NCBI GenBank assembly: GCA_026770705.1 | Contig: JANJGN010000150.1 | Coordinates: 868,001-932,000 of the forward strand | Reading direction: 5' to 3' | From: Isurus oxyrinchus | Lineage: Eukaryota | DNA: 64,000 nucleotides | Part shown: positions 2,041-62,784 of the stretch, one piece after another | Layout of the letters: each line of letters begins with the position of its first letter | How positions within the stretch are numbered: position 1 is the first letter of the stretch | The notes under the pieces: model-generated | What the model was told of the DNA's origin: nothing | Databases searched by the model: none | What the model saw: only the letters and a program-made list of their open reading frames with translations | Translations under genes and position numbers: made by a program

Positions 2041-2999
2041 GAGGTTGGCTGGATGGATTATTGACAAGGTCCATTCACCCTGTAAAGAGTTTCTCTGGTT
2101 TGAAATACCCGATCAAACATCGAGTTCTGTGTCTAAACCTTGTGTTGAAAAGACACCTTTCCAGCTCTTCACCTGCCATTAGCTTGTTGAGTCTTCACAT
2201 GCTCCGTCTGTCTGTGACCAACCCCTCTTAGCTCATCCTTTCCTTGTCATACATCGAGCTGTTCATCCTGACGGGTTCCATCCTTCCCAGTAACACTCCA
2301 TCTCCGACAACAAACTAACTCCCAACACGTTGATGAATTGTATGGATTCCAGCGTCAGTTGGTTCTGTCTGAGGCTGTTTCTCTGATCGGGGACCGAGCT
2401 GTTCTGAATGGACATTGTGTTCAGTACTGATCCTCCGACAGTGCAGCACTCCCTCAGTACTTACCCTCTGACAGTGCAGCACGCCCTCAGTACTGATCCT
2501 CTGACAGTGCAGCACTCCCTCACCACTCCCTCACTGGGGAGAATCTACCTGGGTTTTGAGCTGAAATCATGAGCAGGTCATAAAACATTCTGTATCAGAG
2601 AGAGAGAGAGTGTCTGAGAGACAGAGAGAGACAGAGAGACTGTGTGAGAGAGAAAAAGAGATAGAGAGAGTCTGTGCATGTGTGAGGGAGAGTGTTTGTA
2701 TATGAGGGAGAGAGTGTGCATGTGAGAGTGTGTGAGAGAGAGTGTGTGGGAGAGAGAGTGTGTTTGTGACAGAGAGTGTGTGTGTGTGTGAGGGAGAGAA
2801 AGAGAGAGACAGCAGAAGATCGAGATGAAGAGAAATGTTAAATGTTTGAGAGAGAGAGAATGTGTGTGTCTGAGAGAGAGATTGTGTGTGTATGAGAGAG
2901 AGTGTGTGCTTGACAGAAAGAGAGATTGTGTTAGTTTTAGGGAAAGTGTGTGAGTGTGTGAGAGAGTGTTTGTGTCTGAGAGAGAGAGAGAATGTATTT

Positions 3000-5900
3000 G
3001 AGGGAGGGAGACAGAGAGAATGTGTGTGTGAGAGAGAGAGAGAGCAGAAGAGTGTGATAGAGAGAGATTGTGAGTGTTAGAGAGAGAATGTGTGTGTGTG
3101 AGAGAGAAAGATCGAGCAGAAGAGTGCGATAGAGAGAGATTGTGAGTGTTAGAGAGAGAATGTGTGTGTGTGAGAGAGAGAGATAGAGCAGAAGAGTGCG
3201 ATAGAGAGAGATTGTGAGTGTTAGAGAATGTGTGTTTGTGTGAGAGAGAGATAGAGCAGAAGAGTGTGATAGAGAGAGATTGTGAATGTTAGAGAGAAAA
3301 TGTGTGTGTGAGAGAGAGAGAGAGATAGAGCAGAAGAGTGTGATAGAGATTGTGAGTGTTAGAGAGAGAATGTGTGCGAGAGAGAGAAAGAGATAGAGCA
3401 GAAGAGTGTGATAGAGAGAGATTGTGAGTGTTAGAGAGAGAATGTGTGTGTGTGAGAGAGAGAGATAGAGCAGAAGAGTGTGATAGAGATTGTGAGTGTT
3501 AGAGAGAGAATGTGTGTGTGTGTGTGAGAGATAGAGCAGAGGAGTGTGATAGAGAGAGATTGTGAGTGTTAGAGAGAGAATGTGTGTGTGATAGAGAGAG
3601 AGATAGAGCACAGGAGTGTGATAGAGAGAGATTGTGAGTGTTAGACAGAGAATGTGTGTGTGTGAGAGAGAGAGAGATAGAGCAGAAGAGTGCGATAGAG
3701 AGAGATTGTGAGTGTTAGAGAGAGAATGTGTGTGTGTGAGAGAGAGAGAGATAGAGCAGAAGAGTGTGATAGAGAGAGATTGTGAGTGTTAGAGAGAGAA
3801 TGTGTGTGTGTGAGAGAGAGAGAGATAGAGCAGAAGAGTGTGATAGAGATTGTGAGTGTTAGAGAGAGAATGTGTGTGTGTGTGTGAGAGAGATAGAGCA
3901 GAAGAGTGTGATAGAGAGAGACTGTGAGTGTTAGAGAGAGAATGTGTGTGATAGAGAGAGAGATAGAGCAGAAGAGTGTGATAGAGAGAGATTGTGAGTG
4001 TTAGAGAGAGAATGTGTGTGTGAGAGAGAGAGATAGAGCAGAAGAGTGCGATAGAGAGAGATTGTGAGTGTTAGAGAGAGAATGTGTGTGTGTGAGAGAG
4101 AGAGAGATAGAGCAGAAGAGTGTGATAGAGAGAGATTGTGAGTGTTAGAGAGAGAATGTGTGTGTGTGAGAGAGAGATAGAGCAGAAGAGTGCGATAGAG
4201 AGAGATTGTGAGTGTTAGAGAGAGAATGTGTGTTTGTGAGAGAGAGAGATAGAGCAGAAGAGTGCGATAGAGAGAGATTGTGAGTGTTAGAGAGAGAATG
4301 TGTGTGTGTGAGAGAGAGAGAGATAGAGCAGAAGAGTGTGATAGAGAGAGATTGTGAGTGTTAGAGAGAGAATGTGTGTGTGTGAGAGAGATAGAGCAGA
4401 AGAGTGTGATAGAGAGAGATTGTGATTGTTAGAGAGAGAATGTGTGTTTGTGAGAGAGAGAGAGCAGAAGAGTGCGATAGAGAGAGATTGTGTTTGTGAG
4501 AGAGAGAGAGAGAGCAGAAGAGTGCGATAGAGAGAGATTGTGAGTGTTAGAGAGAGAATGTGTGTGTGTGAGAGAGAGAGAGATAGAGCAAAGGAGTGTG
4601 ATAGAGAGAGATTGTGAGTGTTAGAGAGAGAATGTGTGTGTGATAGAGAGAGAGATAGAGCACAGGAGTGTGATAGAGAGAGATTGTGAGTGTTAGAGAG
4701 AGAATGTGTGTGTGTGAGAGAGAGAGAGATAGAGCAGAAGAGTGTGATAGAGAGAGATTGTGAGTGTTAGAGAGAGAATGTGTGTGTGTGAGAGAGAGAT
4801 AGAGCAGAAGAGTGCGATAGAGAGAGATTGTGAGTGTTAGAGAGAGAATGTGTGTTTGTGAGAGAGAGAGATAGAGCAGAAGAGTGCGATAGAGAGAGAT
4901 TGTGAGTGTTAGAGAGAGAATGTGTGTGTGTGAGAGAGAGAGAGATAGAGCAGAAGAGTGTGATAGAGAGAGATTGTGAGTGTTAGAGAGAGAATGTGTG
5001 TGTGTGAGAGAGATAGAGCAGAAGAGTGTGATAGAGAGAGATTGTGATTGTTAGAGAGAGAATGTGTGTTTGTGAGAGAGAGAGAGCAGAGGAGTGCGAT
5101 AGAGAGAGATTGTGTTTGTGAGAGAGAGAGAGAGAGCAGAAGAGTGTGATAGAGAGAGATTGTGAGTGTTAGAGAGAGAATGTGTGTGTGTGAGAGAGAG
5201 AGATAGAGCAGAAGAGTGTGATAGAGATTGTGAGTGTTAGAGAGAGAATGTGTGTGTGTGTGTGAGAGATAGAGCAGAGGAGTGTGATAGAGAGAGATTG
5301 TGAGTGTTAGAGAGAGAATGTGTGTGTGATAGAGAGAGAGATAGAGCACAGGAGTGTGATAGAGAGAGATTGTGAGTGTTAGACAGAGAATGTGTGTGTG
5401 TGAGAGAGAGAGAGATAGAGCAGAAGAGTGCGATAGAGAGAGATTGTGAGTGTTAGAGAGAGAATGTGTGTGTGTGAGAGAGAGAGAGATAGAGCAGAAG
5501 AGTGTGATAGAGAGAGATTGTGAGTGTTAGAGAGAGAATGTGTGTGTGTGAGAGAGAGAGAGATAGAGCAGAAGAGTGTGATAGAGATTGTGAGTGTTAG
5601 AGAGAGAATGTGTGTGTGTGTGTGAGAGAGATAGAGCAGAAGAGTGTGATAGAGAGAGACTGTGAGTGTTAGAGAGAGAATGTGTGTGATAGAGAGAGAG
5701 ATAGAGCAGAAGAGTGTGATAGAGAGAGATTGTGAGTGTTAGAGAGAGAATGTGTGTGTGAGAGAGAGAGATAGAGCAGAAGAGTGCGATAGAGAGAGAT
5801 TGTGAGTGTTAGAGAGAGAATGTGTGTGTGTGAGAGAGAGAGAGATAGAGCAGAAGAGTGTGATAGAGAGAGATTGTGAGTGTTAGAGAGAGAATGTGTG

Positions 5901-8900
5901 TGTGTGAGAGAGAGATAGAGCAGAAGAGTGCGATAGAGAGAGATTGTGAGTGTTAGAGAGAGAATGTGTGTTTGTGAGAGAGAGAGATAGAGCAGAAGAG
6001 TGCGATAGAGAGAGATTGTGAGTGTTAGAGAGAGAATGTGTGTGTGTGAGAGAGAGAGAGATAGAGCAGAAGAGTGTGATAGAGAGAGATTGTGAGTGTT
6101 AGAGAGAGAATGTGTGTGTGTGAGAGAGATAGAGCAGAAGAGTGTGATAGAGAGAGATTGTGATTGTTAGAGAGAGAATGTGTGTTTGTGAGAGAGAGAG
6201 AGCAGAAGAGTGCGATAGAGAGAGATTGTGTTTGTGAGAGAGAGAGAGAGAGCAGAAGAGTGCGATAGAGAGAGATTGTGAGTGTTAGAGAGAGAATGTG
6301 TGTGTGTGAGAGAGAGAGAGATAGAGCAAAGGAGTGTGATAGAGAGAGATTGTGAGTGTTAGAGAGAGAATGTGTGTGTGATAGAGAGAGAGATAGAGCA
6401 CAGGAGTGTGATAGAGAGAGATTGTGAGTGTTAGAGAGAGAATGTGTGTGTGTGAGAGAGAGAGAGATAGAGCAGAAGAGTGTGATAGAGAGAGATTGTG
6501 AGTGTTAGAGAGAGAATGTGTGTGTGTGAGAGAGAGATAGAGCAGAAGAGTGCGATAGAGAGAGATTGTGAGTGTTAGAGAGAGAATGTGTGTTTGTGAG
6601 AGAGAGAGATAGAGCAGAAGAGTGCGATAGAGAGAGATTGTGAGTGTTAGAGAGAGAATGTGTGTGTGTGAGAGAGAGAGAGATAGAGCAGAAGAGTGTG
6701 ATAGAGAGAGATTGTGAGTGTTAGAGAGAGAATGTGTGTGTGTGAGAGAGATAGAGCAGAAGAGTGTGATAGAGAGAGATTGTGATTGTTAGAGAGAGAA
6801 TGTGTGTTTGTGAGAGAGAGAGAGCAGAGGAGTGCGATAGAGAGAGATTGTGTTTGTGAGAGAGAGAGAGAGAGCAGAAGAGTGTGATAGAGAGAGATTG
6901 TGAGTGTTAGAGAGAGAATGTGTGTGTGTGAGAGAGAGAGATAGAGCAGAAGAGTGTGATAGAGATTGTGAGTGTTAGAGAGAGAATGTGTGTGTGTGTG
7001 TGAGAGATAGAGCAGAGGAGTGTGATAGAGAGAGATTGTGAGTGTTAGAGAGAGAATGTGTGTGTGATAGAGAGAGAGATAGAGCACAGGAGTGTGATAG
7101 AGAGAGATTGTGAGTGTTAGACAGAGAATGTGTGTGTGTGAGAGAGAGAGAGATAGAGCAGAAGAGTGCGATAGAGAGAGATTGTGAGTGTTAGAGAGAG
7201 AATGTGTGTGTGTGAGAGAGAGAGAGATAGAGCAGAAGAGTGTGATAGAGAGAGATTGTGAGTGTTAGAGAGAGAATGTGTGTGTGTGAGAGAGAGAGAG
7301 ATAGAGCAGAAGAGTGTGATAGAGATTGTGAGTGTTAGAGAGAGAATGTGTGTGTGTGTGTGAGAGAGATAGAGCAGAAGAGTGTGATAGAGAGAGACTG
7401 TGAGTGTTAGAGAGAGAATGTGTGTGATAGAGAGAGAGATAGAGCAGAAGAGTGTGATAGAGAGAGATTGTGAGTGTTAGAGAGAGAATGTGTGTGTGAG
7501 AGAGAGAGATAGAGCAGAAGAGTGCGATAGAGAGAGATTGTGAGTGTTAGAGAGAGAATGTGTGTGTGTGAGAGAGAGAGAGATAGAGCAGAAGAGTGTG
7601 ATAGAGAGAGATTGTGAGTGTTAGAGAGAGAATGTGTGTGTGTGAGAGAGAGATAGAGCAGAAGAGTGCGATAGAGAGAGATTGTGAGTGTTAGAGAGAG
7701 AATGTGTGTTTGTGAGAGAGAGAGATAGAGCAGAAGAGTGCGATAGAGAGAGATTGTGAGTGTTAGAGAGAGAATGTGTGTGTGTGAGAGAGAGAGAGAT
7801 AGAGCAGAAGAGTGTGATAGAGAGAGATTGTGAGTGTTAGAGAGAGAATGTGTGTGTGTGAGAGAGATAGAGCAGAAGAGTGTGATAGAGAGAGATTGTG
7901 ATTGTTAGAGAGAGAATGTGTGTTTGTGAGAGAGAGAGAGCAGAAGAGTGCGATAGAGAGAGATTGTGTTTGTGAGAGAGAGAGAGAGAGCAGAAGAGTG
8001 CGATAGAGAGAGATTGTGAGTGTTAGAGAGAGAATGTGTGTGTGTGAGAGAGAGAGAGATAGAGCAAAGGAGTGTGATAGAGAGAGATTGTGAGTGTTAG
8101 AGAGAGAATGTGTGTGTGATAGAGAGAGAGATAGAGCACAGGAGTGTGATAGAGAGAGATTGTGAGTGTTAGAGAGAGAATGTGTGTGTGTGAGAGAGAG
8201 AGAGATAGAGCAGAAGAGTGTGATAGAGAGAGATTGTGAGTGTTAGAGAGAGAATGTGTGTGTGTGAGAGAGAGATAGAGCAGAAGAGTGCGATAGAGAG
8301 AGATTGTGAGTGTTAGAGAGAGAATGTGTGTTTGTGAGAGAGAGAGATAGAGCAGAAGAGTGCGATAGAGAGAGATTGTGAGTGTTAGAGAGAGAATGTG
8401 TGTGTGTGAGAGAGAGAGAGATAGAGCAGAAGAGTGTGATAGAGAGAGATTGTGAGTGTTAGAGAGAGAATGTGTGTGTGTGAGAGAGATAGAGCAGAAG
8501 AGTGTGATAGAGAGAGATTGTGATTGTTAGAGAGAGAATGTGTGTTTGTGAGAGAGAGAGAGCAGAGGAGTGCGATAGAGAGAGATTGTGTTTGTGAGAG
8601 AGAGAGAGAGAGCAGAAGAGTGTGATAGAGAGAGATTGTGAGTGTTAGAGAGAGAATGTGTGTGTGTGAGAGAGAGAGAGATAGAGCAAAGGAGTGTGAT
8701 AGAGAGAGATTGTGAGTGTTAGAGAGAGAATGTGTGTGTGATAGAGAGAGAGATAGAGCACAGGAGTGTGATAGAGAGAGATTGTGAGTGTTAGAGAGAG
8801 AATGTGTGTGTGAGAGAGAGAGAGATAGAGCAGAAGAGTGCGATAGAGAGAGATTGTGAATGTTAGAGAGAGAATGTGTGTTTGTGAGAGAGAGAGAGAG

Positions 8901-9480
8901 CAGAAGAGTGCGATAGAGAGAGATTGTGTTTGTGAGACAGAGAGAGAGAGCAGTAGAGTGAGATAGAAAGAGATTGTGAGTGTTAGAGAGAGAATGTGTG
9001 TGTGTGAGAGAGAGAGATAGAGCAGAAGAGTGCGATAGAGAGAGATTGTGAATGTTAGAGAGAGATTGTGTTTGTGAGAGAGAGAGAGAGAGCAGTAGAG
9101 TGCGATAGAGAGAGATTGTGTTTGTTAGAGAGAGAAGGTGTGTGTGTGAGAGAGAGAGAGAGAGAGCAGAAGAGTGCGATAGAGAGAGATTGTGATTGTT
9201 AGAGAGAGAATGTGTGTGAGAGAGAGAGAGAGAGATAGAGCACAGGAGTGTGATAGAGAGAGATTGTGAGTGTTAGAGAGAGAATGTGTGTGTGTGAGAG
9301 AGAGAGATAGTGCAGAAGAGTGTGATAGAGAGAGATTGTGTTTGTCAGAGAGAGAATGTGTGTGTGTGAGAGAGAGAGATAGAGCAGAAGAGTGTGATCG
9401 AGAGAGATTGAGTGTTAGAGAGAGAATGTGTGTGTGTGAGAGAGAGAGATAGAGCAGAAGAGTGCGATAGATAGAGATTG
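3000..9480. repeat. About 70-bp GA/GT-rich satellite with a 1738-bp higher-order repeat
   Basis: Monomer is about GATAGAGCAGAAGAGTG(T/C)GATAGAGAGAGATTGTGAGTGTTAGAGAGAGAATGTGTGTGTGTGAGAGAGA. Diagnostic variants recur every 1738 bp (ttagacagag near 3641/5379/7117; ORF starts at 3611, 5349, 7087). Confidence 0.95.
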
Positions 9481-9704
9481 TGAGGACTAAACTCACTGAG
9501 AGAAAAAGCTGGACACCCAGCACAGGGAGTGAGGGAACAATGAATTTTTGCCGTGTTTGGTGAATCGGTTTGCGATGTCCCTTCTCAATCTCTCCTTCCT
9601 TGTCTTGACATTAGATAATTCCCTGGGGCTGTTTAATTCCCTGAAAGGTGCCATTTAAAGGTGCCATTTAATGCAGTAAAACATCCTTATTGCTTCACAG
9701 GATT

Positions 9705-10170
9705 CCCCCACAAGGGGTAACATCCCCTCAGCATCCACCCTGTCAAACCCCCCACCACCTCAGAATCTTATATGTTTCAATAAGATCACCTCTCATTCTT
9801 CTAAACTCCAATGGATACAGTCCCAACCTGCTCAACATTTCCTCATAAGACAAACCCCCTTCATCCCAGGAATCAGCCCAGTGAACCTCCTCTGAACTGC
9901 CTCCAATGCAGAGTCTATCCCTCCCTAAGTAAGGAGACCAGAACTGTACACACTGCTCCTGATACAATCTCACCAACGCCCTGTACAGTTGTAGCAAGAC
10001 TTCCCTCCTTTTATACTCCATCCCTTTGCAATAAAGGTCAACATTCCACTTGCCTTCCTCATTCCGTGCTGTTCCTGAATGCTGACTTTCTGTGATTCAT
10101 GTACAAGGACACCCAGATCCCTCTGTACCACATTCTGCTGCCTCTCTCCATTGAAGTAATATTCTGCTTT
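9705..10170 (-). mobile_element. CR1 LINE 3' (post-RT) fragment
   Basis: Translation MEYKRREVLLQLYRALVRLYQEQCVQFWSPYL...LYPLEFRRMRGDLIETYKIL is the typical CR1 ORF2 C-terminus. Inverted copy at about 45370-45835. Confidence 0.9.
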
Positions 10171-10204
10171 TTGATGTCCTGTCTCTTCCCTTGTTGCCTT
10201 TCAG

Positions 10205-10506
10205 GAGTGACGTCAGAGGGATGGTCTATGAAGGCGCTGCCTCGGAGGGCCATCAGCAGCTCTTGTGTGGTTATTCCGTGTAGCTTTGACTTTCCTTCCC
10301 ACTCTTACACAGCACTGCACGGAGCTTGGTATAAATATTGGTATAGATGGAAATATACCATCACATACACCAAAGATCCCAATTATGGGGTGGCCACATT
10401 CGTGGGACGTGCTAAAATAATCGGCGACTTGGAAGGGAAGAATTGTTCGGTGAGGATTGACAGTCTCAGAGCTGAAGACAGTGACGTGTATTACACCCAA
10501 TTCTAA
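10205..10506 (+). pseudogene. Siglec/MAG-like V-set Ig exon, truncated after DSDVYY by a Gypsy remnant; leader exon deleted in this arm
   Basis: Phase-1 acceptor cctttcag|GA GTG. GWSMKALPRRAISSSCVVIPCSFDFP...GAWY...GRAKIIGDLEGKNCSVRIDSLRAEDSDVYY shows the Siglec CxxIPC and NCS cysteines. Runs into gag sequence at about 10495, stop at 10504-10506. Confidence 0.85.
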
Positions 10507-11630
10507 ATCTTTTCACCAATTAGTCGTCCTCATGAAGATGTATTTTCAGCTGAAGCCGTGGGTAATAATGCAGAGGTTTAAGTTTAACTCCAGAGTAAGG
10601 GCCCAGGGAGAGTCCATCGCAACCTATACAGTGAAGTGGAAGCAGGTGACTGAGCACTGGGACCTCGGAGACACACTCAATGACATGTTGCGGGGCCGAT
10701 TGGTTTGTGTCGTTCACCCCAACGCCATTCAGAGCCGTTTACTCGCAGAAGCCGACATCGATTTGAAGCGCACCATGGAAATAGCGCCAGGCATGGAAAG
10801 TGCTGGGAGAGACTGGCGGGATTTACAGGATGTACAACATGGCGCCAGTCCTCAGCTGGGACAGGAACCAACCACCGGGCGTGAGGCTCAAACTGGAGAG
10901 AGAGAGAGAGAGAGAGAGACAGCCGCCAAGCGAGAGACAGTCTCTGCCGCTCCAGAAACTAAAAGGCTTCGTGGGAGTATTTCAGCAGCAACTCCGAAGT
11001 TGGCCTGTTCTCGATGTGGGGGGCATTGAGCACGTACTGGACACCTGCAGGTTCAAGGGGGCAGAATGCCATCACTGCCACAAGAAAGGGGCGGGTAATA
11101 AAGCAATGCAGGGTGAAATCGAGACAGCCCATCAGGCAGTGCACCAACATGATGGAAGTGAATAATATCACAGAGCCTGAAGCTGCTGATACCGATGTCT
11201 ATTCCCTGTCCAATGTCACAGTGGTAAAAACTGAACCTATAACCATCACAACCCAAGTGAATGGGCAGCCACTAGTAATGGGGCAGATACGGGAGCCTCA
11301 GACACAGTGGTGGAAGAGCCCACATTTAAACAGCTAAATGAAGGAACCCAGACGCTGAATTTAGAGCAAACAATGGATCAGCTGAAGACACACACTGGAG
11401 AATCCATACAGGGAAAGGACCTCATCCCAGTACCTGTGTCCTACAGGCAGCAGACAGCCCAGCTTCCAGTGATCATAGCGACAGGTGAGGGCCCTAGTCT
11501 TCTGGGCCGAGACTGGTTCCAGAAAACCAAGCTCAGCTGCTCTGAAATGTTTCACTGGAGGAGTTGCTGAGTTGCTGGGGGAATATGAGAGTGTATCTCG
11601 GAATGAGTTTGAAGAATTGAAGCATCCTCA
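10495..11630 (+). mobile_element. Degenerate Ty3/Gypsy gag - zinc knuckle - protease fragment (no RT, no 5' LTR)
   Basis: KPWVIMQRFKFNSRVRAQGESIATY...DTLNDMLRGRLVC...IQSRLLAE (gag), CHHCHKKG knuckle, frameshifted ADTGAS protease site near 11283-11300, and GPSLLGRDW. Confidence 0.9.
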
Positions 11631-11864
11631 CAGGCTGCAAGTGTCCCTCAGGTCAGAGTTGGTTCCACTGGAAAATCCTGAAGAGAAAGAAAGCGAATTC
11701 TGTGCCGCTCTGAGCAAACTGAAGAAACAGTTGGCAGGGAAGACCCAACCATGTCCAATGTTCCAGGAGGAAGGCAAGAGATACAAGGAAGAGACTGAAG
11801 AGCTGAAGATTCAGCTGAATGAAACCAAAGAGGCAGTTACAGTATCACAACAAGTTTACAGTGC

Positions 11865-12229
11865 AGAAGGAGGCCATTCAGCCGGTCGAGCCTGTTACAC
11901 AGGAACAGAAGGGGGCCATTCAGCCCATTGAGCCTGTTACACAGATACAGGAAGAGGCCATTCAGCCCCTCGAGCCTGTTACACAGGAACAGGAGCAAGC
12001 CCATTCAGCCACTGATGTCTGTTACACAGGAATGGAAGGAGGCCCATTTAGCTCCTCAAGCCTGTTACACAGGAACTGGAGGAGGCCCATTCAGCCCCCT
12101 CGAGCCTGTTACACAAGAACAGGAGGAGGCCCATTCAGCCCCATTGAGCCTGTTACACAGAAAAAGGACGAGGCCCATTCAGCCACTGATGCCCGTTACA
12201 CAGGAACAGGAGGAGGCCATTCAGCCCCT
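11865..12229 (+). repeat. About 42-bp tandem repeat (GGAGGAGGCCATTCAGCCCCTCGAGCCTGTTACACAGGAACA)
   Basis: Visible tandem units that resemble the reverse-strand CR1 3' end (compare 32380-32410). Longer array in arm B at 43135-43670. Confidence 0.85.
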
Positions 12230-13460
12230 TGTAGGGTGTGGTGGTGTGTGTCAGCTTCACCTGCGACTTCTGAGCCGTCTGAATCGCTCCCACTCCCTGG
12301 GTTCTAGACCTTGGACTTATTCGGGGCTTGTCACAAAGTGCAGCAGACAACTGGTTTTGGTGCAAGACAAAAACTGAGTTTACTGAAGTCACAAATGAAC
12401 TTCTAACATTAGGATGACACTGAGATTATACAGACTTACAAAGTACACTGAGTTAAGAATAGGGAACACACGGCATAACGAGGGAGAATCACGCTACTAA
12501 TGCCCTTACCCTTGTCCCACCCCCCATCCCTAACTAAATTGCACTAGGAGAGGTCAGGGGTCACGCTCACCAACCCAGGGTTCCTTGACAGGTGGAAATC
12601 CAGCCAGGTAAGCCGGTTGCAGTTTTGGGGGACGCTCTTAGTGTCCTCTGGGGCCTGTCATCCCCACGTGGTCCTGGTTTGTGGAATCTGTGAAGGGTCT
12701 TCAGTTGGGTGGAGGGCGCGGTTGTGGGTGGTCGATCTTCATGGAGGGCAGCGGTTGTGGCCTTGTTGTCTTCGGTTGAGCCTGCCTCCCCGTGCCCCTC
12801 ACCGTGATGTTGCCTGTGGGCCTGCAAACCTCCAGATCTCCTTGCTTAAACTCTGTTTCAACCGCTCCCAACTGCTCACTGCCCTGTGTCAGCTTTCAAC
12901 ACTGCAACCCTTCTGCTGGCTGGTTTCTCTCCCAACTGACTGCCCAGTTATACTGCCTTTCGAGTTTCTTATCGCAATCCAAATCAAGGTTCGTTCTTTG
13001 TTTGTCTTTGGTGGGCTTCCCCAGGTGATTGATGTCTCGTTGTTGTTAATGGGCTCGCATGATGTTTATCATTGTCTTCCTGCCCAGTAACTAGTTTTGA
13101 ACTGAAAGCCATTGTATGTGTGGAGTATTGATGGGTTCGCATAATTAAATTGCCGGCCTCAGAAGTTAGGAGCGATTATTGATGCAAGATTTAGATGGGC
13201 TTCAGTTGCGTGTGAAGTGAAGTCTTTCTCTGGGTTGATTGTATTAAAGGGAAGAATGCGTATTCTGTCTCCTCTCGTTGTCTGGTTTCAGGCCAAACAT
13301 TCCACACTGCTCTCAATAAGCCCGGACATGTGCAGCCCCAGGCCTTCATGGGCCCAGCCTCCTGTCTGCAGGGTTTTCCACTTAACTCAGCAGTTTAAAG
13401 GTGCAAAAGTGATATCCTTGTTGATGATATGGAAAATGTGGGAATTTTGAGAACCCTTCA
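12230..13460 (-). mobile_element. Solo LTR
   Basis: TG...CA termini with an imperfect terminal inverted repeat (TGTAGGGT ... ACCCTTCA) and an AGTAAA poly(A)-like signal on the minus strand. No matching target-site duplication. The arm B copy (about 42750-43135) has an internal deletion of about 850 bp. Confidence 0.6.
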
Positions 13461-13859
13461 AGAGATAGGGAGGGTTACAGGGGCTGGAGGAGGTTACAGG
13501 TATAGGGAGGGGTGAAGGGGTTGAAGGTGGTTACAGAGATGGGGAGGGTTGTGGGGGTTGGAGGTGGTTACAGATATAGGGAGGGGTGTAGGGATTGAAG
13601 GTGGTTACAGAGATGGGGAGGATTGTAGAGGCAGGTGGAGGCTGCCTTAGGGAGGGTTGTAGGGGCTGGAGGAAAGGGAGAGAGAGAGGAGGTTACAGAT
13701 ATAGGGAGGAAGACAGTCAGAGAGAGAGACTCCAGGAGATAGAGAGCGATAGAGAGATTGAGAGACAGACAGAGACTGAGAGAGGGAGAAGAGAGAAGGA
13801 GAGTGAGAGAGAGAGAGAACAAGTGTGAAAGATGGTGGAAGGGAAGAGTGGGGAGGTGT

Positions 13860-14210
13860 TGGCCTGATGGTATTTTCACTGGACCAGTATTCCAGAGACC
13901 CAGTGTAATGCTCCTGGGACCCTGGTTAGAATCTCACCACAGCAGTTGGTGGAATTTCAATTCAATAAAAACCTGGAATTAAAAGTCCGATGATGACCAG
14001 GAAACCATTGCTGATTCTTGTATTTGGGTCACAAATGCCCTTTAGGGAGGGAAATCTGCTGTCCTTACCTGGTCTGGCCTACATGTGACTCGAGACCCAC
14101 AGCAATGTGGTTCACTTTTAAAAAGTGGCCTCTGAACAAGGGCAATTAGGGTTGGGCAATAAATGCTGGCCTAGGCAGTGATGTCCACATCACATGAAAG
14201 AATGAAATAA
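13860..14210 (+). mobile_element. tRNA-derived SINE
   Basis: TGGTATTTTCACTGGACCAGTATTCCAGAG...GGTTAGAATCTCACCAC (A/B-box-like), with a LINE-shared 3' tail GGGCAATTAGGGTTGGGCAATAAATGCTGGCC. Confidence 0.7.
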
Positions 14211-14630
14211 AAGGACAGAGAGGGACAGACAGAGTCGAGAGACACCCAGAATGAAAAAAACACAGTAAACACTGGAAAATAAACATTCTGGTCTGATCTG
14301 GTCTTGTATACCTTCAAATGGAACACCAGTAAAACAGGGAAATAAGAGTACTGGGCCAAACTGTTAGAGAGGGACACATTTAGAGAGAGAGAGAGAGAAA
14401 GAGGGAGACACTGAAAGAGATAAGTACAAGGAAAGAAAGAGTGAGAGAGAGAGACAGACAGAGACACACAAAGAAGTAGAAAGAAAGTGATAGAGATGAA
14501 GCAGGAGAGAATGAGGAGAAAGATAGATAGATAGAGAGAGAGGATGGTAGAGAAAGAGAACGAGAGGAAAAGAGACAAAGGCAGAATGTGATGGAACACT
14601 GAATCCTTGTCTATGCGTTTTGAAATCCAG

Positions 14631-14764
14631 CCCAGAACTATCATTGGAAGATTCAGCGAGTGTCCAGTACAGGGGACCCAGCCCAACCTTCTCATCCTGA
14701 CCTTCCCAGTGGGGCTGAAGAGGGCAGAGAGGAAACCTTCCTCTGTTATTCTGTTGTCGAATAA
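14631..14764 (+). CDS. Candidate orphan cytoplasmic terminal exon with ITIM-like LCYSVV
   Basis: Unique sequence after aaatccag| reads (phase 1) QNYHWKIQRVSSTGDPAQPSHPDLPSGAEEGREETFLCYSVVE*. Acidic run before L-x-Y-x-x-V. The acceptor is weak. Confidence 0.35.
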
Positions 14765-14769
14765 ACACA

Positions 14770-15410
14770 ACAATTCTGGAACTCTGCCCTTTCTATCTCA
14801 CGGATTAGAATATAAGGGGGCAGAGGTCATGCTTCAGTCTACATAAAGCCCTGGCTAGACAACACCTGGAGTCACTGTGAGACATTCTGGGCCCCACACC
14901 TTAGGAAGGATATATTGACCTCGGAGGGAGAGCAGTGTCAGTTTACCAGAATGAGACCGGGACTCCAAGGGTTAAATCACAAGGAGAGATTAAACACAAA
15001 CTCGGCTTGTATTCCCTGGAAGTTAGAATGTTAAGCAGGAGATTTGATGAAAGTTCGCATGATATTAAGGGGAACAGATCGGGGGCGATAAAGAGAAACC
15101 ATTTCCCCTGGTTGGGGGGAGTCTGGGACTCGGGGTCAGAGCCTAAATAGGAGAGGCTGACCTTTCAGGAGTGAAATTAGGAAGCACAAAGGGTGGGAGA
15201 AATTTGGAACGGTCTTCCCCAAACTGAAACTGATGCACGATCAAGTTGTTCATTTTAAACCTGTGAGACTGATAGATTTTTGTTATCCAAAGGTATTAAA
15301 GGAGATGGGACAAAGGCATATGGGGCTAGTTTGCAGATCAGCCATGAACTCATTGAATGGTGGAGCAGGCTCGAGGGGCCAAATGGCCTCCTCCTACCCT
15401 CATGTAATAG
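14770..15410 (+). mobile_element. CR1 LINE 3' fragment
   Basis: GLEYKGAEVMLQ...LGLYSLEVRML and the CR1 3' UTR GATCAGCCATGAACTCATTGAATGGTGGAGCAGGCTCGAGGGGCCAAATGGCCT. Confidence 0.85.
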
Positions 15411-15779
15411 AAACTTACCTGTCAGAAGCCAGTTTATGTTGATGTGAGTCTGAGTCGATGACTGAACCCAGTTGGTGACTTGTTCCATACAAAGCAAGAA
15501 CGTTCATGCCTTTCAATGTTCCTGGATAAAACATGAACAAAGCTGGTGACAGACAGTCTCCACATGGTAAACACTGACCGATCAACACATGACATGGCTG
15601 TTAACCCCTAAACCTCAGCGTAAATCAGTTCCCCCTCGAGGCCCCTTGTCCAAAATAAAAGCAACGCACACAATTTGTAAAATAGTAAGTGTAGCAATGA
15701 GAGGAGTAAGGGGTTAGGGGGCATGCGGTTCACCTGATTTGCCGACATAAGAACCAGCCCCTCTGTTTTTGCTATGTTG

Positions 15780-15995
15780 TGTTGCGTCAATATGAACACA
15801 TATTTGCACAAGGTGAAGGGCGTTGCGGAGGGACTGACAGTTCTCGGCGCCAGACAGTCAATGTCCCAGTGACCTTACTGCTGGTCCCAGGCCAGTGGGA
15901 CAGGGAACATCGACACTGCAATATCCAGAAATGGGTGTGATACCACACAGCAACCCGCCCCCGGCTGTCCCCTTCAAGTGTTTCAGGTATAAGAG
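15780..15995 (+). promoter_or_regulatory. Putative promoter of the hepcidin-like gene (BMP/SMAD element, C/EBP-like sites, TATA-like box)
   Basis: TTGCGTCAAT and TTGCACAA (about 15782-15812), GGCGCC at 15846-15851 directly followed by AGAC, and TATAAG at 15988-15993, 77 bp before the ATG. Mirrored at about 42185-42400. Confidence 0.45.
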
Positions 15996-16064
15996 CAGGA
16001 AGCTCCTCTAGTTACAAACCAAAGCATCAAAGCAGAGCCAGAAGATCAGAAGAGACAGGCAGAG

Positions 16065-16157
16065 ATGGGAAGCTCCCAGATGAAATGGCGACTTGTCTTG
16101 TTCACTCTGACTTTGCTGCTCTCCCTGCAGCTGAGTCACTTCTTCTCCTTGTCGAGG
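16065..16157 (+). CDS. Exon 1 (signal peptide) of a small secreted prepropeptide, hepcidin-like
   Basis: MGSSQMKWRLVLFTLTLLLSLQLSHFFSLSR, 93 nt, phase-0 donor AGG|gtaagc. Not in the ORF track. Confidence 0.6.
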
Positions 16158-16349
16158 GTAAGCTAAGAGATGTCCCTCTGGGTGAGGTGTTTCTTGCACA
16201 TGACTCTACATCTACCACCCAGATAGACTGGTCTCTTCCGCAGTTTGATATTATTATGTTCGTGCCTTTAATATTGTCGCCCTCTATGAATTTAACATCA
16301 TTTCCTTCTGTCATTTCCCCTGAAATTCTCATTCTTGTTTTCAATCCCT

Positions 16350-17140
16350 CCTCAGCGACTCCCTATCTCTGTAACCTCCTCCAGCCCGTACAACCCTCCC
16401 TATCTCTGTAACCTCCTCCAGCCGCTACAACCCTCCCTATATCTGTAACCTCCTCCAGCCCCTACAACAATCCCCATCTCTGTAACTTCCTCCAGCCCCT
16501 ACAACTGTCCCTATCTCTGTTACCTCCTCCAGCCCCTACAACACTCCCTATCTCCGTAACCTCCTCCAGCCCCTACAACCCTCCCTATCTCTGTAACCTC
16601 CTCCAGCCCCTATAAACCTCCCTATCTCTGTAACCTCCCCCAGGCCCCACAACCCTCATGATCACTGTAACCTCCTCTAGACTCTACAACCCTCCCTATC
16701 TCTGTAACCTCCTCCAGACCCTACAACCCTCCCTATCTCTGTAACCTCCTCCAGGCCCCACGACCCTCAGAATCACTGTAACCTCCTCCAGCCCCTACAA
16801 TGCTCATGAACTCTATAACGTCCTCTCCACACTATAACTCTCCCTATCTCTGTAACCTACTGTGGCCCCTACAGCAGTATCTATTTTGGTAACCTCCTCC
16901 AGCCTCTACAACCCTCCTTACCTCTGTAACCTCCTCCAGCCCCCACAACCCCCCCCATCTCTTTAACCTCCTACAGCCCCTACTCACCTCCCTATCTCTG
17001 TAACCTCCTACAGCCCCTACAACCTTCCCTATCTCTGTCACCTCCTACAGCCTCTAGAACCCTCCCTATCTCTGTTACCTCCTACAGCCTCTACAACCCT
17101 CCCTATCTCTGTAACCTCCTCCAGCCGGAACAACCCTACC
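16350..17140 (+). repeat. About 37-bp tandem repeat (CTCTGTAACCTCCTCCAGCCCCTACAACCCTCCCTAT), L2-derived
   Basis: Visible tandem units. Also at 13460-13700, 30800-31500 (inside L2), 41040-41830 and 42565-42745. Confidence 0.9.
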
Positions 17141-17956
17141 TAAATCTCTGGTCTGAGTCTCACTCCAGGGAATTCAGTCCCATAACGTCGGTCAACACTC
17201 CGTGCTGAGGGAGTGCTGCACTGTCAGAGGGTCAGTAGTGTGGAAGTGTTGCACTATTGGAGGGACAGTACTGAGTGAGTGCTATACTGTCGGAGGTCAG
17301 TACTGAGGAAGTGCTGCTGTGTCGGAGGGTCAGTACTGAGGGAGCGCTGCACTGACGGAGGGACAATACTGTGGGAGTGCAGCACTATCGAAGGGTTAGT
17401 ACTGAGGGAGTGCTGCTGTGTCGAAGGGTTAGTACTGAAATAGAGCTGCACTGACTGAGGGACAGTACTGAGGGAGCGCAGCACTATCGAAGGGTTAATA
17501 CTAAGGGAGTGCTGCAGTGTCAAAGGGTTAGTACTGAGGGAGCACAACAATGTTGAATGAGACATTAAACTGAGTCCCCCGTCTGCCCTCTCGGGCGGGT
17601 GTGAAAGATCCCACAGCCACTATTTGGAGGAAGAGCAGGGGGTGTTCTCCCCGGTGTCCTGGGACCAATATTTATCCCTCAACCAACATCACCAAAAACA
17701 GATGATCTAGGCCATGATCACATTGCTATTTGTGGGATCTTGCTGTGCACAAATCAGCTGCCACATTTCCTACAGTGTGAGTGCACTTCAAAAACATCCT
17801 TCAGTGGCTGTGAAATGCTTTGGGATGTGGTGAAAGGCGTTAGAGAAATGCAAGTCTGTCCTCCTCCCCCTCTCTCTCCTGTACCTCTCTCTCTCTCTCT
17901 CCCTCTCCCTCAATCCTCCTCTCACTTTCTCCCTGATAAATTCTTTCTTTTTGCAG

Positions 17957-18013
17957 GTTGACACTGCTTTAGGTTCTTCGACGATTGAGAAATCTGTGGA
18001 TTCCCCGGACACG
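17957..18013 (+). CDS. Exon 2 (acidic pro-region) of the hepcidin-like gene
   Basis: Strong acceptor ttctttctttttgcag|, VDTALGSSTIEKSVDSPDT (57 nt, phase 0-0), donor ACG|gtaggt. Identical translation in arm B. Confidence 0.55.
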
Positions 18014-20243
18014 GTAGGTGGAAATTCATTCCTTATTTTAAGGTTTCTCCCTGCTCGTTTCTTCCACAGAAAGTTTTCTGATTTCAAGCTGATTTCAGTG
18101 GCAGTCTGTCTCGGTTATACTCAGGAGGCATGTTTGAAATCGAACCCCCCCCGCCCCCTTTTTTTGCAAAGCTGGGAAGATGCAATTCCAAGGAAGTGAA
18201 CATATCCCCACAGGAATTTTAAATGTAACCCACGCCGGGAATAGTGAGAGGGAGACTGATCCAGCCTGGGAGTGGGTTAAAGAGAGGCTGGGAGTCGAGA
18301 GTCGGAGAGAGGGATGGAATGGGGGAGGGAGGGATTGGAAGAGAGAGACAGAGAGTGGGATGGGGAGGGGTGAAAGGGAAAGAACATAGGTGGGAGAGAG
18401 TGACAGAGGGAGAAATTAAAGAAGAGATGCAGAGTGAGGGAAAGTGAAAAGGGAAGAGAGATTGTCCAAGAGAGAGAAATTAACAGAAAAGGGAGAGTTA
18501 CAGAGTGAGCGAAAGGTACAAAAATAGTGTGAGAGAGAGGGAGAGATACAGAGTGGGAGAAGGAGACAGGGGAGAGAGAGGGAGAGAGACAGGAAAAGGG
18601 AGAGAGGAGAGAAAGATTGGGAGAGAGGGCAATTGAGAGGAAGAGTAGGAGAGAGAGAGACAGGGAGAGGAGGAGTGGATGAGAGGAAGAGAGAGAGATA
18701 TGGAGCAGGAGAACACCTCCTCCGGTCCCGATGTTCCTCCAAAATCTCTGACATTACTGCATCTCCCGGGACCCCCTGATTCCCATCGCTCCACCATTGG
18801 TGGCCGTGCCTTCAGCTGCCTGGGGCCCTGAGCTCCGGAATACCCTCCCTTAACCTCTCTGCCTCTCTCTCTCTCTCTCCTTTAAGACGCTCCTTAAAAA
18901 CTGACATCTTTGACCAAGCTTTTGGTCACCTAACCCTAATATCTCCATATGTGACTCAGTGTTAGACTTCTCTCTGATTTACGCTCCGGTAATGTGGGCT
19001 GGGACATTTTGCAATATCAGAGGCGCTGTGTAAATGCAAGTTGTGAGTGTTATGTGGAAGGGAGACCCCAGGCGGCAGTCAGTGCCAGAGACTGGAGTCA
19101 TTGTGTGCAGACCGTATCTAATCTCTCCGAATGCACAATCGGTTTGACTGTCAGCCAAAGCACTTTTGATATTTGATCCTTCTAACTGTTTATAACCAGG
19201 CCTACATCAAACACCGAGAGGCTGGTTAATCAACAGACACCTTAGAGGATCGAGTGAAAGACAAAGAGGACTTGCATTTCTCTAGCGCCTTCCAACACAT
19301 CAGGACGTCCCAAAGTGTTTCGCAGACAATCAAGTGCTTTTTTTCTTTCATGTGAGGTCACTGATGTACTGTGGGAAAAGAATCAGCCATTGGCGCACAG
19401 TAAGATCCCACAGACAGCAGCATGATAATGACCAGCGCGCTCCCAGTACTTGCACTGCAAGTGTCAGTTCAGGATGTGTGCTCGATTCTCTGCAACTCTC
19501 AGCTCTGAGTTAAAAGGACCACCAGGCATAATTGAGAAATTACCGAGCTGTCGGAGGGTCAGTACCGGCGGGGGGGCAGGACAGTGGGAGGGTCAGTACT
19601 GAGGGGGTGCTGCATTGTCAGACGGTCAGTCTTGGAGTGCTGCACTGTCAGAGGGTCAGTACCGGCGGGGGACTGCACAGTCGGAGGGTCAGTACTGAGG
19701 GGGTGCTGCATTGTCAGACGGTCAGTACTGAGGGAGTGCTGCACTGTCAGAGGGTCAGGGCTAAGGGAGTGCTGCACTGATGGAGGGTCAGTACTGAGTG
19801 AGTGCTGCACTGTCAGAGGGTCAGTGCTAAGGGAGTGCTGCACTGTTGGAGGGTCAGTACTGAGTGAGCGCTGCACTGATGGAGGGTCAGTTCCGAGGGA
19901 GTGCTGCACTGTCAGAGGGTCAGTGCTAAGGAAGTGCTGCACTGTCAGAGGGTCAGTGCTAAGGAAGTGCTGCACTGTACAGAGGGAGTGTGAGACTGAC
20001 AGAGGGTCAGTAATGAGGGAGTGTGAGACTGACAGAGGGTCACTATTGAGGATGTGCTGCACAGTCGGGGGGGTCAGTACTGAGGGAGCACTGCACTGCC
20101 ATAGGTGGTTTCTTTCAGATGACATGAGAGAGAGGGTTAAACCCACTGAGACAAGACTGACACTAATGAGGCTGCTCAATAATTTAACCCTATCAGTGCC
20201 AGTAAATAATGTGAGGATGTCTTCTGTTTCCATTTCTCTGTAG

Positions 20244-20492
20244 GGTAAACAGAACGTGCTGATTACTGAGCCTCGGAACACAACCAGAGACACAACTAGT
20301 GAGGGGGAGACCCCAGCTCCCCGGGGTCTCTCTGAAGGTGCATTGGGAGGCGATGCTGGACATTGGCACATCGACAATCCCAACGGCCTTCTCTACGCCA
20401 ATCCCCAAGTATTGAGGATGTCCAGTGATGATGGGTCTGTCCACAGGGAAGAGGAGACGGAATACGCACAGATCAGGTTCGAGCATAACTGA
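20244..20492 (+). CDS. Orphan Siglec-like terminal cytoplasmic exon (degenerate ITIM LLYANP, ITSM-like TEYAQI)
   Basis: Phase-0 acceptor tttctctgtag|GGT AAA, 82 aa plus stop, paralogous to 55611-55859. AATAAA near 21023. Confidence 0.75.
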   Translation, partial: GKQNVLITEPRNTTRDTTSEGETPAPRGLSEGALGGDAGHWHIDNPNGLLYANPQVLRMSSDDGSVHREEETEYAQIRFEHN

Positions 20493-20689
20493 ATGAGAAA
20501 TGGGGAGTGAGAGTGAGGAGGTGTGGGGGTGGGGGTAGTGATTGAGATTCCTGGGAACAGGAAACAACCCACTGGGGGAGAGGGGGAGAGAGGGAGGAAG
20601 GGATGCGATTGGGCTGCGGTTGGTGTGGTTTGGAATGAAATGCTTCTCCAGAGAGGACTGGATGCTGAGCCACTGGGGATAGAGATTCA

Positions 20690-20728
<39 letters not shown>

Positions 20729-21059
20729 TCTTTGTCTTTCTTTCTGTGTCTGTCACTCATTCTCTATCTCCAGCTCCTCCTTTAAGATGCCCGTTAATAA
20801 CTGACTTTGTTGACTCAGCTGTTGGTCTCCTGTCCCTTATATCTCCTCATGTGCCTCAGAGTCAGGTGAAGATGTGACTAACAATTCCCGGATGAGCCTT
20901 GGGACATTTTGCTACATTAAAGGTGCTATATAAATGCAAGTAGTTGCAGTAAGTCTGATCTGCTTCGATTAACAATGGAACCACAAAGGCTCCTTCGACA
21001 GGGCGTGTGTGCAGGAGGATCCCAATAAATACATTGAGCTGTGAGATTTTTAATTCTTA

Positions 21060-21647: not shown

Positions 21648-21729
21648 GAGAAAGACAGCGATGGAGGAGAGAGTTTCAGGGACCAGTGACATTGTATTGA
21701 CCCCCAGTCCACTCTCTGTGAAGCACCAG
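21648..21729 (+). CDS. Orphan Siglec-like first cytoplasmic exon
   Basis: attacag|G AGA AAG...CAC CAG|gtacag, 82 nt, phase 2 to 0, RKTAMEERVSGTSDIVLTPSPLSVKHQ. Paralogous to 56785-56866. Confidence 0.75.
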
Positions 21730-23144: not shown

Positions 23145-23393
23145 GGTAAACAGAACGTGCTGATTACTGAGCCCCGGAACACAACCAGAGACACAACTAG
23201 CGAGGGGGAGACCCCAGCTCCCCGGGGACTCTCTGAATGTGCAGTGGGAGGCAATGCTGGACATGGGAACCCCGACAATCCCGACGAGTTTCTCTACGCC
23301 AATCCCCAAGTCTTCAGGGTGCCCAGTGGTGATGGGTCTGTCCACAGGGAAGAGCAGACGGAATACGCACAGATCAGATTCAAGAGAAACTGA
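23145..23393 (+). CDS. Second orphan Siglec-like terminal cytoplasmic exon (FLYANP, TEYAQI)
   Basis: Same acceptor and phase as 20244, in frame with 21648-21729. AATAAA at 24001. 20100-21040 and 22990-24010 are tandem paralogs. Confidence 0.75.
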   Translation, partial: GKQNVLITEPRNTTRDTTSEGETPAPRGLSECAVGGNAGHGNPDNPDEFLYANPQVFRVPSGDGSVHREEQTEYAQIRFKRN

Positions 23394-28960: not shown

Positions 28961-29172
28961 GTCCTGAGGACCATGAGCCAATGTAGAATGAACTTGTCCA
29001 CTCCTGTTTCCAGGATTCACTTCCATCTATTGTGATACCTTGGGGAGTTCATTGTGTGTCCTGTAGATGGTCCACACTGCAGCCACTGTGCCCCAGTGAA
29101 GGAGGGGGTGGATATCGAGTCTAGTGGATTGACAAAACACACAGAGTAAAATATTGATATTTCTCTCCCCAG

Positions 29173-29559
29173 TTGGACTGTCACAAGAGTGGAAAGGCAA
29201 CACTCCACGAGAGGTGACAGCGCAGGAAGGTTCGTGTGTACAGATTCCATGTAATTACAGTTATCCAGCACGTTTAGTAGGGAAAGCACGTGTCGGAATC
29301 TGGTATGTGATATGGTACACATGGAATACATGGAATACAAGGTCTAGAGGGATCATAGCATTTCACTCCAAGGATCACAATCGCGAGTTAACACGGTTAC
29401 ACCATCGGACCCGGCTGTCTGGAGACCTGAAAGATGGCGAATGTTCCCTGATTATAAACAACATCAGACGGGAAGATGCAGGATATTATTATTTCAGAAT
29501 AGAATTTGACGGCAACAATAGTTACAGCTACTATCCTGAAACCCAGCTTCATGTTTCTG
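29173..29559 (+). CDS. Siglec-like V-set exon (V-a) with essential Arg
   Basis: ccccag|TT GGA ... TCT G|gtaagt, 387 nt, phase 1-1. AQEGSCVQIPC, RTRLSGDLKDGECSLIINNIRREDAGYYYFRIE. Confidence 0.9.
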
Positions 29560-29789
29560 GTAAGTGCTGTGTTATAATTACTCAACAATTCACATCCAAC
29601 ACTCAACGGGAAATAATAGTGTTTGATTTGCTTGTTTTTTGGCCGTGTTAACCAGCGTCACTATTTTTAATGATTTGTCTATTTCTGCTCCCAGATCCAT
29701 GAGCTTATTGTGTGTGATTGAATCCACATCATAGCTGTAACGTAAACCGAGCTGAGGGGTGATGACACCTCCCCCCTGAGTGAAGTGTC

Positions 29790-31810: not shown

Positions 31811-32351
31811 TGCCCTTTGACCCTTGACCCCAGCTTGAGTCTTATTTTTGAGGGAATGTACAACCTCCTTAGATTTCTGACCAAAATGTCATTTGATTAT
31901 TTTTATTGAGCCAATGCCAAGCCCCGATACCGAGCGAGAGCCTCCTCATTTGCTGAGTTTAGGGTGATGAGTCAGCCCCTTAGTCCATAGAGGGGATTCT
32001 CCTCGGTAATGCGCAGCCTTGTTTGTGTCTCTCCACAAGCGCATGAGGGGTTTGTACAGAGGCTGCAGCGCTGGAGGAGGTCTGCACAGGGATCCTGGCC
32101 TGTCCTGAGCCGGTTTTAGCAAGGACCACTCTGGCCTTGGCAGCTGAAAGCCAGCCATTGGACAGATGGGGCCTGTCACAAGGAGCCTGTTAGTCACTCC
32201 CCCCTGTGTCTCCTGTGCTCGGATCCAGACCATGTTGGCTGATGGATCTGGCTCAGGAAGGGTCCTCCCCATGGGACCCCCAGATGGAAGGTGGGTCGAG
32301 CGGGTCAGTCACTTGCATGTTTATTCTGCAGCTTTAATATATTTAGAAGGT

Positions 32352-33130: not shown

Positions 33131-33244
33131 TGTTGCCATTCTCCTCAGTATTGACCATCCCCCCAATTCAGCCTTATCTGTAAATATCGGGTTCAGTGGA
33201 TCCACAAACCATTCAGAGATAAATATTGAGATTTCTCTCCCCAG

Positions 33245-40264: not shown

Positions 40265-40321
40265 CGTGTCCGGGGAATCCACAGATTTCTCAATCGTCGA
40301 AGAACCTAAAGCAGTGTCAAC
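40265..40321 (-). CDS. Hepcidin-like exon 2, arm B copy
   Basis: Same 57-nt exon and splice sites as 17957-18013. Confidence 0.55.
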
Positions 40322-59295: not shown

Positions 59296-59333
<38 letters not shown>

Positions 59334-59389
59334 TGTGTATGTGTGTGTGTGTGTGTGTGTGAGTGATGTTGAAGTTTGCAGTAACTCAC

Positions 59390-62723: not shown

Positions 62724-62784
<61 letters not shown>

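Follow-up and report, generated by a model that had tools for sequence, protein, structure and literature searches.

A Siglec-interleaved hepcidin array in the shark Isurus oxyrinchus, seen from two gene copies without a mature-peptide exon

Introduction

In human, a single HAMP gene with phase-0 coding exons of 90 and 60 nucleotides (nt) adjoins MAG and CD22 in the gene order HAMP–MAG–CD22–FFAR and has the regulatory sites BMP-RE1, a STAT3 site and BMP-RE2. In tandem immune clusters, chimeric genes arise by unequal recombination and by the shuffling of exons of the same phase. In published work, HAMP1 acts on ferroportin and HAMP2 is mostly antimicrobial (PMC8502971, PMC5665920), HAMP2 is restricted to acanthopterygians and under positive selection (PMC3325200), several teleosts carry three to six hepcidin copies (PMC6240063), with seabream gene names reaching hamp2.14 (PMC11043163, PMC12255565), and hepcidin is contained in nurse-shark plasma and missing from the whale-shark protein set (PMC9207270). 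Our literature search returned no report of a hepcidin expansion in sharks, of which a genome-paper supplement may nevertheless hold a mention. Here we describe two hepcidin-derived genes in a 64,000-nt stretch of the Isurus oxyrinchus genome (contig JANJGN010000150.1, positions 868,001 to 932,000; hereafter, as a whole, the window), both lacking exon 3, which encodes the mature peptide. We consider it probable that both belong, as members without exon 3, to an array of some 125 hepcidin copies, likely derived from a conserved HAMP1-type locus on another contig (C34), and that the intact members of this array are likely immune effectors, not iron hormones.

Results

Each window copy consists of a promoter followed by two coding exons, one copy in either arm of an inverted duplication (roughly 9667–19945 versus 45872–38329):

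16065–16157, forward strand: copy 1 hepcidin exon 1, coding part (93 nt, 31 residues, phase 0, GT donor)
17957–18013, forward strand: copy 1 hepcidin exon 2, acidic pro-region (57 nt, phase 0, AG/GT)
42022–42399, reverse strand: copy 2 exon 1 together with its promoter (start codon at 42114)
40265–40321, reverse strand: copy 2 hepcidin exon 2, its letters identical to copy 1 exon 2

Exon 1 of copy 1 encodes a signal peptide opening MGSSQMKW and is identical at 29 of 31 residues to a hepcidin of the basking shark Cetorhinus maximus that carries PF06446 (XP_078389754.1); exon 2 is identical to the same protein at 16 of 19. Exon 1 of copy 2 (42114–42022) departs from that of copy 1 by one base (R9Q), and promoter and exon 1 together by 6 of 378 bases. 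By blastn, the window exons are 97.8–100% identical to exons 1–2 of complete three-exon hepcidin genes elsewhere in the genome. RNA contigs of four runs (X1–X3 from one sample, X6 from another study) were aligned to positions 15700–20900. The joint between 16157 and 17957, with GT..AG ends, was seen in three of the four runs (X1, X2 and X3), where depth on the exons exceeded that in adjacent intron bins by a factor of hundreds. In X2 and X3, exon 2 was followed by loose ends with array-type exon-3 letters. X6 gave no depth on the exons, which is no evidence of silence. At least 69 further joints exist beyond those listed.

A preliminary description of this stretch, made from its letters alone, had proposed the promoter elements, the two phase-0 exons, a second minus-strand copy (42400–40265) and a splice from 16157 to 17957, all of which were found where it put them. 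The hepcidin identity that it suggested is borne out by the match to the shark prepro region, and its alternative, a different small secreted peptide, is excluded because both exons match shark hepcidin, match intact genes and are spliced. Our searches also agree with it that neither arm holds an exon 3: a six-frame motif scan found no hepcidin Cys motif in the window, and a real hepcidin exon 3 had no blastn match anywhere in it. Relaxed CC..CC matches were rejected as exon 3, being mostly translated 33-base-pair (bp) minisatellite. Shark HAMP1-type genes (XP_078389754.1, XP_038670190.1 of the catshark Scyliorhinus canicula and the C34 genes) are alike in three phase-0 exons, an 88-residue precursor, a near-identical signal peptide and pro-region, an RX(K/R)R site, eight cysteines and an eight-residue loop; the window copies have no exon 3, and with it no RX(K/R)R site or mature peptide. 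They are hepcidin-derived genes, not hepcidin-peptide genes.

Exact-match counts across the genome gave 127 exon-1 starts, 120 exon-2 matches and 89 exon-3 acceptors, with none for reversed-pattern controls, and a search with PF06446 matched 90 places, 78 of them above the cut-off. One exon-3 acceptor match, on C7, was taken as chance, as no PF06446 match lies there. Two of the exon-1 starts are on C34, a contig of 19.9 megabases (Mb), and the other 125 make up an array interleaved with Siglec sequence. The preliminary reading of truncated paralogs carried by Siglec duplications therefore stands for both window copies and understates this array of about 125.

We read 126 array loci (98 starts among the matches listed, 23 loci found by exon 3 and 5 by further selection), fetching up to 6.8 kilobases (kb) for each, so that an exon further away would go unseen. 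They comprise 79 three-exon loci, 21 in which exons 1–2 are followed by a Siglec tail (fusion loci), 12 with exons 1–2 only, 6 without exon 2, 4 with exon 1 only and 4 with exon 3 only; for the 98 unselected starts among the matches listed, the corresponding numbers are 60 three-exon, 21 fusion, 11 with exons 1–2 only, 2 without exon 2 and 4 with exon 1 only. Canonical splice sites, an open frame and eight cysteines characterize 43 of the 79 three-exon loci, which encode 21 distinct mature peptides behind a predicted convertase cleavage site of RQKR (34 copies), RQNR (7) or HQNR (2). Eight-Cys copies of exon 3 number 84 and encode 38 distinct peptides; the exon 3 of L029 scores 31.6 bits against PF06446, for which the cut-off is 27.

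A GT-to-TT change at the first donor (for example, in L027 and L034) is scattered over the tree, and splicing at the GT that lies one base further upstream would put the reading out of frame; the pattern suggests spread of the change across the array by gene conversion. The six copies without exon 2 (L032, L077, L113, L147, L148 and L151) would keep the frame from exon 1 to exon 3, and the donor is broken in five of them.

It is extremely improbable that the array is an assembly artefact made of uncollapsed haplotypes or read errors. Its contigs are unplaced (0.18–4.2 Mb) and five locus pairs are 99.8% identical over their full length, as an artefact would have it. Against this, 38 starts lie on C52 alone and 32 on C71 (with 10 each on C121 and C150 and the rest on others), the loci fall into 103 clusters among 112 at 99.5% identity and show 108 different length signatures, variants are common to many copies, and the fusion junction described below is present in RNA.

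The two C34 hepcidin genes (L030 and L031, at 15200606 and 15231431) form a tandem pair separated by about 31 kb. Both encode the mature peptide MSHLSICMYCCGCCNKKGTKKTCGYCCKL, which is 2 of 29 residues from the basking shark and 3 of 29 from the catshark and keeps the HAMP1 N-terminus with His3 and its hydrophobic patch. Of the two species, the basking shark is the closer to this genome. Siglec exons flank them on both sides and an FFAR1-like gene lies about 30 kb away (C34, ~15265300). By sequence, the C34 pair is the HAMP1 orthologue, because its peptide is nearly identical to those of basking shark and catshark, it stands between Siglec exons and an FFAR1-like gene is near; the data favour it as the iron hormone, with the sequon-bearing form as a derived array. 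The locus is thus like the human one in its Siglec and FFAR neighbours, and differs from it in having two genes and in its LSR-family sequence lying elsewhere: PF05624 gave four matches, on C18, C452 and C1620, and none on C34 or the array contigs. The LSR synteny raised in the preliminary description was accordingly not seen, and it is the FFAR neighbour that backs synteny at C34.

The LSR-family pair on C18 may be ILDR genes; the matches at C452:60361 and C1620:70134, both on small contigs, score equally. The FFAR1-like gene is split over two frames (L157:4973–5984, as 4973–5635 and 5448–5984) and is possibly frameshifted. The catshark has a second hepcidin paralog, P0004 (XP_038669797.1), with an altered N-terminus and a shorter loop.

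The commonest array mature peptide, MGRQQLCRFCCNCCNWREPNETCGLCCRY, is found in 14 of the 43 intact copies and differs at 17 of 29 residues from each of the C34, basking-shark and catshark peptides. Array-specific changes outnumber C34-specific ones by 15:0 against basking shark (p 6e-5) and by 14:0 in a second comparison. At the DNA level, C34 and the array differ at 132 of 1554 non-coding positions (8.5%), at 5–9% in exons 1–2 and at 30 of 87 positions (34.5%) in the mature region (mature versus non-coding, Fisher p 8e-11). All eight cysteines are kept, as is the eight-residue shark loop, a long form that is ancestral in sharks. In each of the 84 array peptides, position 3 is R or K in place of the His3 of HAMP1, the hydrophobic N-terminal residues that are constant from catshark to C34 are replaced, and an N-E-T N-glycan sequon is present. 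Relative to shark HAMP1-type genes, the intact array copies combine these changes with a short promoter and more than 100 copies. Diversity within the array is 0.042 in the mature region, 0.002 in exons 1–2, 0.001–0.018 in introns and 0.025 in the 3′ untranslated region, and 20 of the 21 segregating changes are non-synonymous.

The array prepro region differs from C34 and basking shark at 7 of 59 residues and nests with shark HAMP1-type sequences. An array-type exon 3 query had no match among proteins of 73–2000 residues, which is weak evidence, and a query with P0002 returned five shark proteins among 12 candidates, none of them array-type. The sole match in a HMMER search of 1.84 billion representatives, P0001, was rejected as a tandem-repeat open reading frame unrelated to hepcidin. 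The array-type precursor appears to be unannotated, because it was not found in the protein collection searched.

Among described systems the array resembles the HAMP2 genes of acanthopterygians such as sea bass, large yellow croaker and gilthead seabream: in both cases many copies accompany a conserved HAMP1, the SHL-type N-terminus has been lost and the mature peptide changes fast. The CRFCCNCC core of sea-bass Hamp2 is the same as that of the array peptide, whose sole PDB match, a weak one, is the fish hepcidin 1s6w (E 0.26). The lineage differs, as exons 1–2 of the array nest with shark HAMP1 (in a tree without teleost sequences), and so do the roughly 125 copies, long loop, sequon, low charge and Siglec interleaving. 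The array is likely an independent counterpart of teleost HAMP2.

Upstream of exon 1, the following elements were located in copy 1:

15782–15811, forward strand: bZIP/C-EBP-like sites, TTGCGTCAAT at 15782 and TTGCACAA at 15804 (putative, by sequence)
15846–15875, forward strand: BMP-responsive-element-like GGCGCC (15846) and AGAC (15852) with a TGACCT nuclear-receptor half-site
15988–15993, forward strand: TATA-like box, TATAAG here and TATAAA at C34

Of 122 array promoters, 121 have one or both of the C/EBP-like sites, and the C34 genes differ at this place. GGCGCC occurs three times in the whole window. Its block stands 219 nt before the copy 1 ATG; across the array, 106 of the 122 promoters have GGCGCC between −214 and −226, and 15 have GGTGCC; in the C34 genes it lies 2843 and 3522 nt before the ATG and is the only GGCGCC in the 4.5 kb upstream of each, none being proximal. 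This single distal site (2.8–3.5 kb) with nuclear-receptor and bZIP neighbours resembles the human BMP-RE2, placed at −2255 and flanked by bZIP and HNF4/COUP sites (PMC3879105); the C34 genes differ from the human locus in that none is proximal. No STAT-type TTCn2-4GAA site was found in 15500–16070. The GGCGCC/TGACCT block may function as a BMP-type element, and a promoter deletion in the array ancestor would be the simpler reading of its shift and of the probable direction of that shift.

Such a block in 106 of 122 promoters, now beside the TATA box, together with the absence of a proximal STAT-type site, could indicate that the array peptide still takes part in iron handling, as an altered-affinity ferroportin agonist or decoy whose amplification was a BMP-controlled dosage adaptation; one croaker HAMP2 did raise macrophage iron (PMC6240063). 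We regard this as quite unlikely. The ferroportin-binding patch of human hepcidin comprises His3, Phe4, Ile6 and Phe9 (PMC7915682), and His3 and the hydrophobic N-terminal residues are replaced in all 84 array peptides; moreover, a target that keeps changing accounts better for so many different peptides than a single transporter of the host does.

The two window copies have lost exon 3 in different ways, as the following features describe:

19548–19986, forward strand: 33-bp minisatellite, where hepcidin intron 2 changes over to the last Siglec intron
20244–20492, forward strand: Siglec cytoplasmic-tail exon (82 residues, phase 0, in frame with hepcidin exon 2)
19200–19229, forward strand: cryptic acceptor within intron 2, joined to exon 2 in RNA; the frame closes after 9 codons
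38099–38112, reverse strand: copy 2 deletion junction, ~2.86 kb removed with exon 3, short imperfect homology at its ends

Copy 1 tracks an intact hepcidin gene at 98% for 1.83 kb from the start of exon 2, to about 19787. Beyond the changeover, the tail exon at 20244–20492 serves as the third exon of a 132-residue open reading frame, in frame because both junction exons are phase 0; its product has a hydrophobic leader and an acidic, Cys-free body, with no RX(K/R)R (furin) site and a TEYAQI tyrosine motif near the end. This exon was overlooked when copy 1 was first described as truncated: the gene is a fusion and no dead end. A distal tyrosine motif marks it as a Siglec last exon, at both 23145 and ~55855 a paralog of it comes after a penultimate Siglec exon, and it has no Pfam match. 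Hepcidin homology ends at one common offset in 21 of 21 fusion loci, 19 of which have one tail type in common; 13 of the 21, window copy 1 included, retain canonical splice sites and the full 132-residue frame, and tail variants are singletons (7 codons changed, 1 nonsense). Copy 1 is like other chimeric genes of immune clusters in its junction within an intron-shared repeat, phase-compatible exons, open frame and spliced transcript, and differs in that its partners come from unrelated families, a peptide-hormone leader and a receptor cytoplasmic tail. Copy 2 stops about 240 nt short of the expected exon 3 site and picks up 2.86 kb further on, with a right breakpoint common to L087 and L115.

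The fusion joint, 18013–20244 with GT..AG ends, was found in X1 (one contig, depth 4352), and a cryptic joint from 18013 to 19200, also GT..AG, in X1 and X3. Fusion splicing holds for the copy class, and the transcripts are not assignable to the window's own copy. In the NCBI basking-shark gene models P0005 and P0006, exon 2 is followed by unrelated sequence; P0006 (131 residues) was rejected as a basking-shark fusion, as it has no similarity to the Siglec tail (E 0.25). Because the cryptic acceptor at 19200 is used and these models end in unrelated sequence, exon 2 joins whatever acceptor comes next. The fusion protein would be secreted and is most likely a by-product. We give little credence to the idea that selection established the copy-1 fusion as a new gene, in which a hepcidin promoter and signal peptide secrete a Siglec-tail polypeptide. 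Its frequency (21 of 98 array starts among the matches listed), the 13 of 21 copies with canonical splicing and a full frame, the tail type common to 19 of 21 and the joint in RNA would favour it. The singleton tail variants are too few to speak for constraint, however, exon 2 also splices to 19200 and runs into unrelated sequence in basking-shark models, and the tyrosine motif is not known to serve any purpose outside the cell.

Several points weigh against the reading of an array whose intact members are immune effectors. Decay is heavy, with GT changed to TT at the first donor in 48 of the 122 array loci that contain exon 1, and RQKR is replaced by RQNR or HQNR in 9 of 43 intact copies. Net charge is 0 to +4 in array peptides versus +5 in the C34 type, the wrong direction for a membrane-active antimicrobial, and arginines have been linked to activity (PMC6240063). 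The 20:1 non-synonymous excess is insignificant alone (p 0.12). An older paralog with converted flanks is possible, because synonymous differences from C34 are also raised in the mature region, over few sites (NG86, 5 of 14.5 sites; three purely synonymous codons). The array copy number is a count in the assembly. X1–X3 come from one sample and were taken to be RNA, and depth is a poor measure of expression. The fusion joint, among the joints listed, comes from one library and a single contig, where the shorter side of the joint has 27 letters; X1 tail depth carries T>C at 20273, so that most tail signal is not from the window copy. Finally, a tree of 1.6 kb around exon 2 spreads the fusions over nine weakly supported groups and gives a once-only origin no resolution.

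Some of the same observations would be expected if the hepcidin copies had passively hitch-hiked with an expanding Siglec array, their peptide without selected function and the copies heading to pseudogenes. Siglec tail exons, with 315 exact matches genome-wide against 125 hepcidin starts, are the more amplified, often stand in pairs or triplets ~2.9–3.1 kb apart and lie on the contigs of the hepcidin array too; an exon is missing in 47 of 126 loci, and the broken donors, the polymorphism test and the lower positive charge point the same way. We nevertheless find hitch-hiking unlikely, as neutral decay would not give 34.5% divergence in the mature region versus 8.5% in its flanks while sparing eight Cys codons, Gly and the pro-region, nor the 15:0 asymmetry between lineages, and array-type exon 3 is spliced in RNA.

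Further features of the window are the following:

29133–34688, forward strand: Siglec exons of V-set and C2-set type, lying between the arms (Pfam V-set, Ig_CD22, C2-set_2)
21648–21729, forward strand: penultimate cytoplasmic exon of a Siglec gene, phase 0 at its end, the second tail exon then following at 23145–23393
2597–9484 and 46464–48513: large GA/GT-rich satellite in both inversion arms (72/142-bp periods, 1738-bp higher-order unit)

Best PDB matches of the immunoglobulin (Ig) exons at 29133–34688 are Siglec-5, MAG and sialoadhesin. Tail exons stand at 20244, 23145 and ~55855–55859, and X2 shows, as a loose end at 20242, sequence of the exon at 21648–21729 spliced onto a tail exon. A distinct V-set exon at 10096–10503 (forward strand) is 27–30% identical to other Siglec V domains; its frame ends where retroelement-like sequence starts, near 10454–11900. 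On the reverse strand, 58748–63129 holds five near-identical tandem C2/I-set Ig exons, one of them partial, at a spacing of ~1–1.3 kb and with 88–95% matches on C34 (L158 and L160).

Discussion

We infer that the array and its exon-3-less members arose stepwise. A segment with hepcidin and Siglec sequence would have been duplicated away from the C34 locus, and a promoter loss of 2.6–3.3 kb would then have brought the BMP-element block to 219 nt before the ATG. Of the 29 residues of the mature peptide, 17 changed; the peptide kept its eight cysteines and loop, exchanged His3 for Arg or Lys and gained the N-E-T sequon, and the unit was amplified and is still turning over by birth and death. From the junctions observed, unequal recombination within the shared 33-bp minisatellite may have made the copy-1 type, and a 2.9-kb deletion copy 2. 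Genes of the copy-1 type, as a class and not as the window copy itself, are spliced to give a 132-residue hepcidin leader with a Siglec tail.

A bolder reading, which we offer tentatively, is that a shark lineage evolved a HAMP2-like family of its own, at a scale unmatched in the papers searched, in which more than 100 positively selected, N-glycosylated hepcidins moved from iron control to defence and were amplified together with Siglecs as one functional cluster, possibly with their glycan as a Siglec ligand and with the expressed leader/tail fusion gene as a further product.

So far, the split between hormone and defence peptide has been described as an event of spiny-finned fishes, with copy numbers from a few to about fifteen. 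A cartilaginous fish that underwent its own expansion on a far larger scale and retained the hormone would be a natural replicate for the repeated recruitment of hepcidin to defence, and the array offers 38 natural peptide variants on one scaffold. Copy 1 provides a concrete route to fusion genes in immune clusters, by way of a shared minisatellite and exons of the same phase. The window copies themselves amount to a hepcidin promoter and leader that lack the hormone, one fused to a Siglec tail and the other truncated. What makes them of interest is that they mark a very large and rapidly evolving hepcidin array with a likely part in defence.

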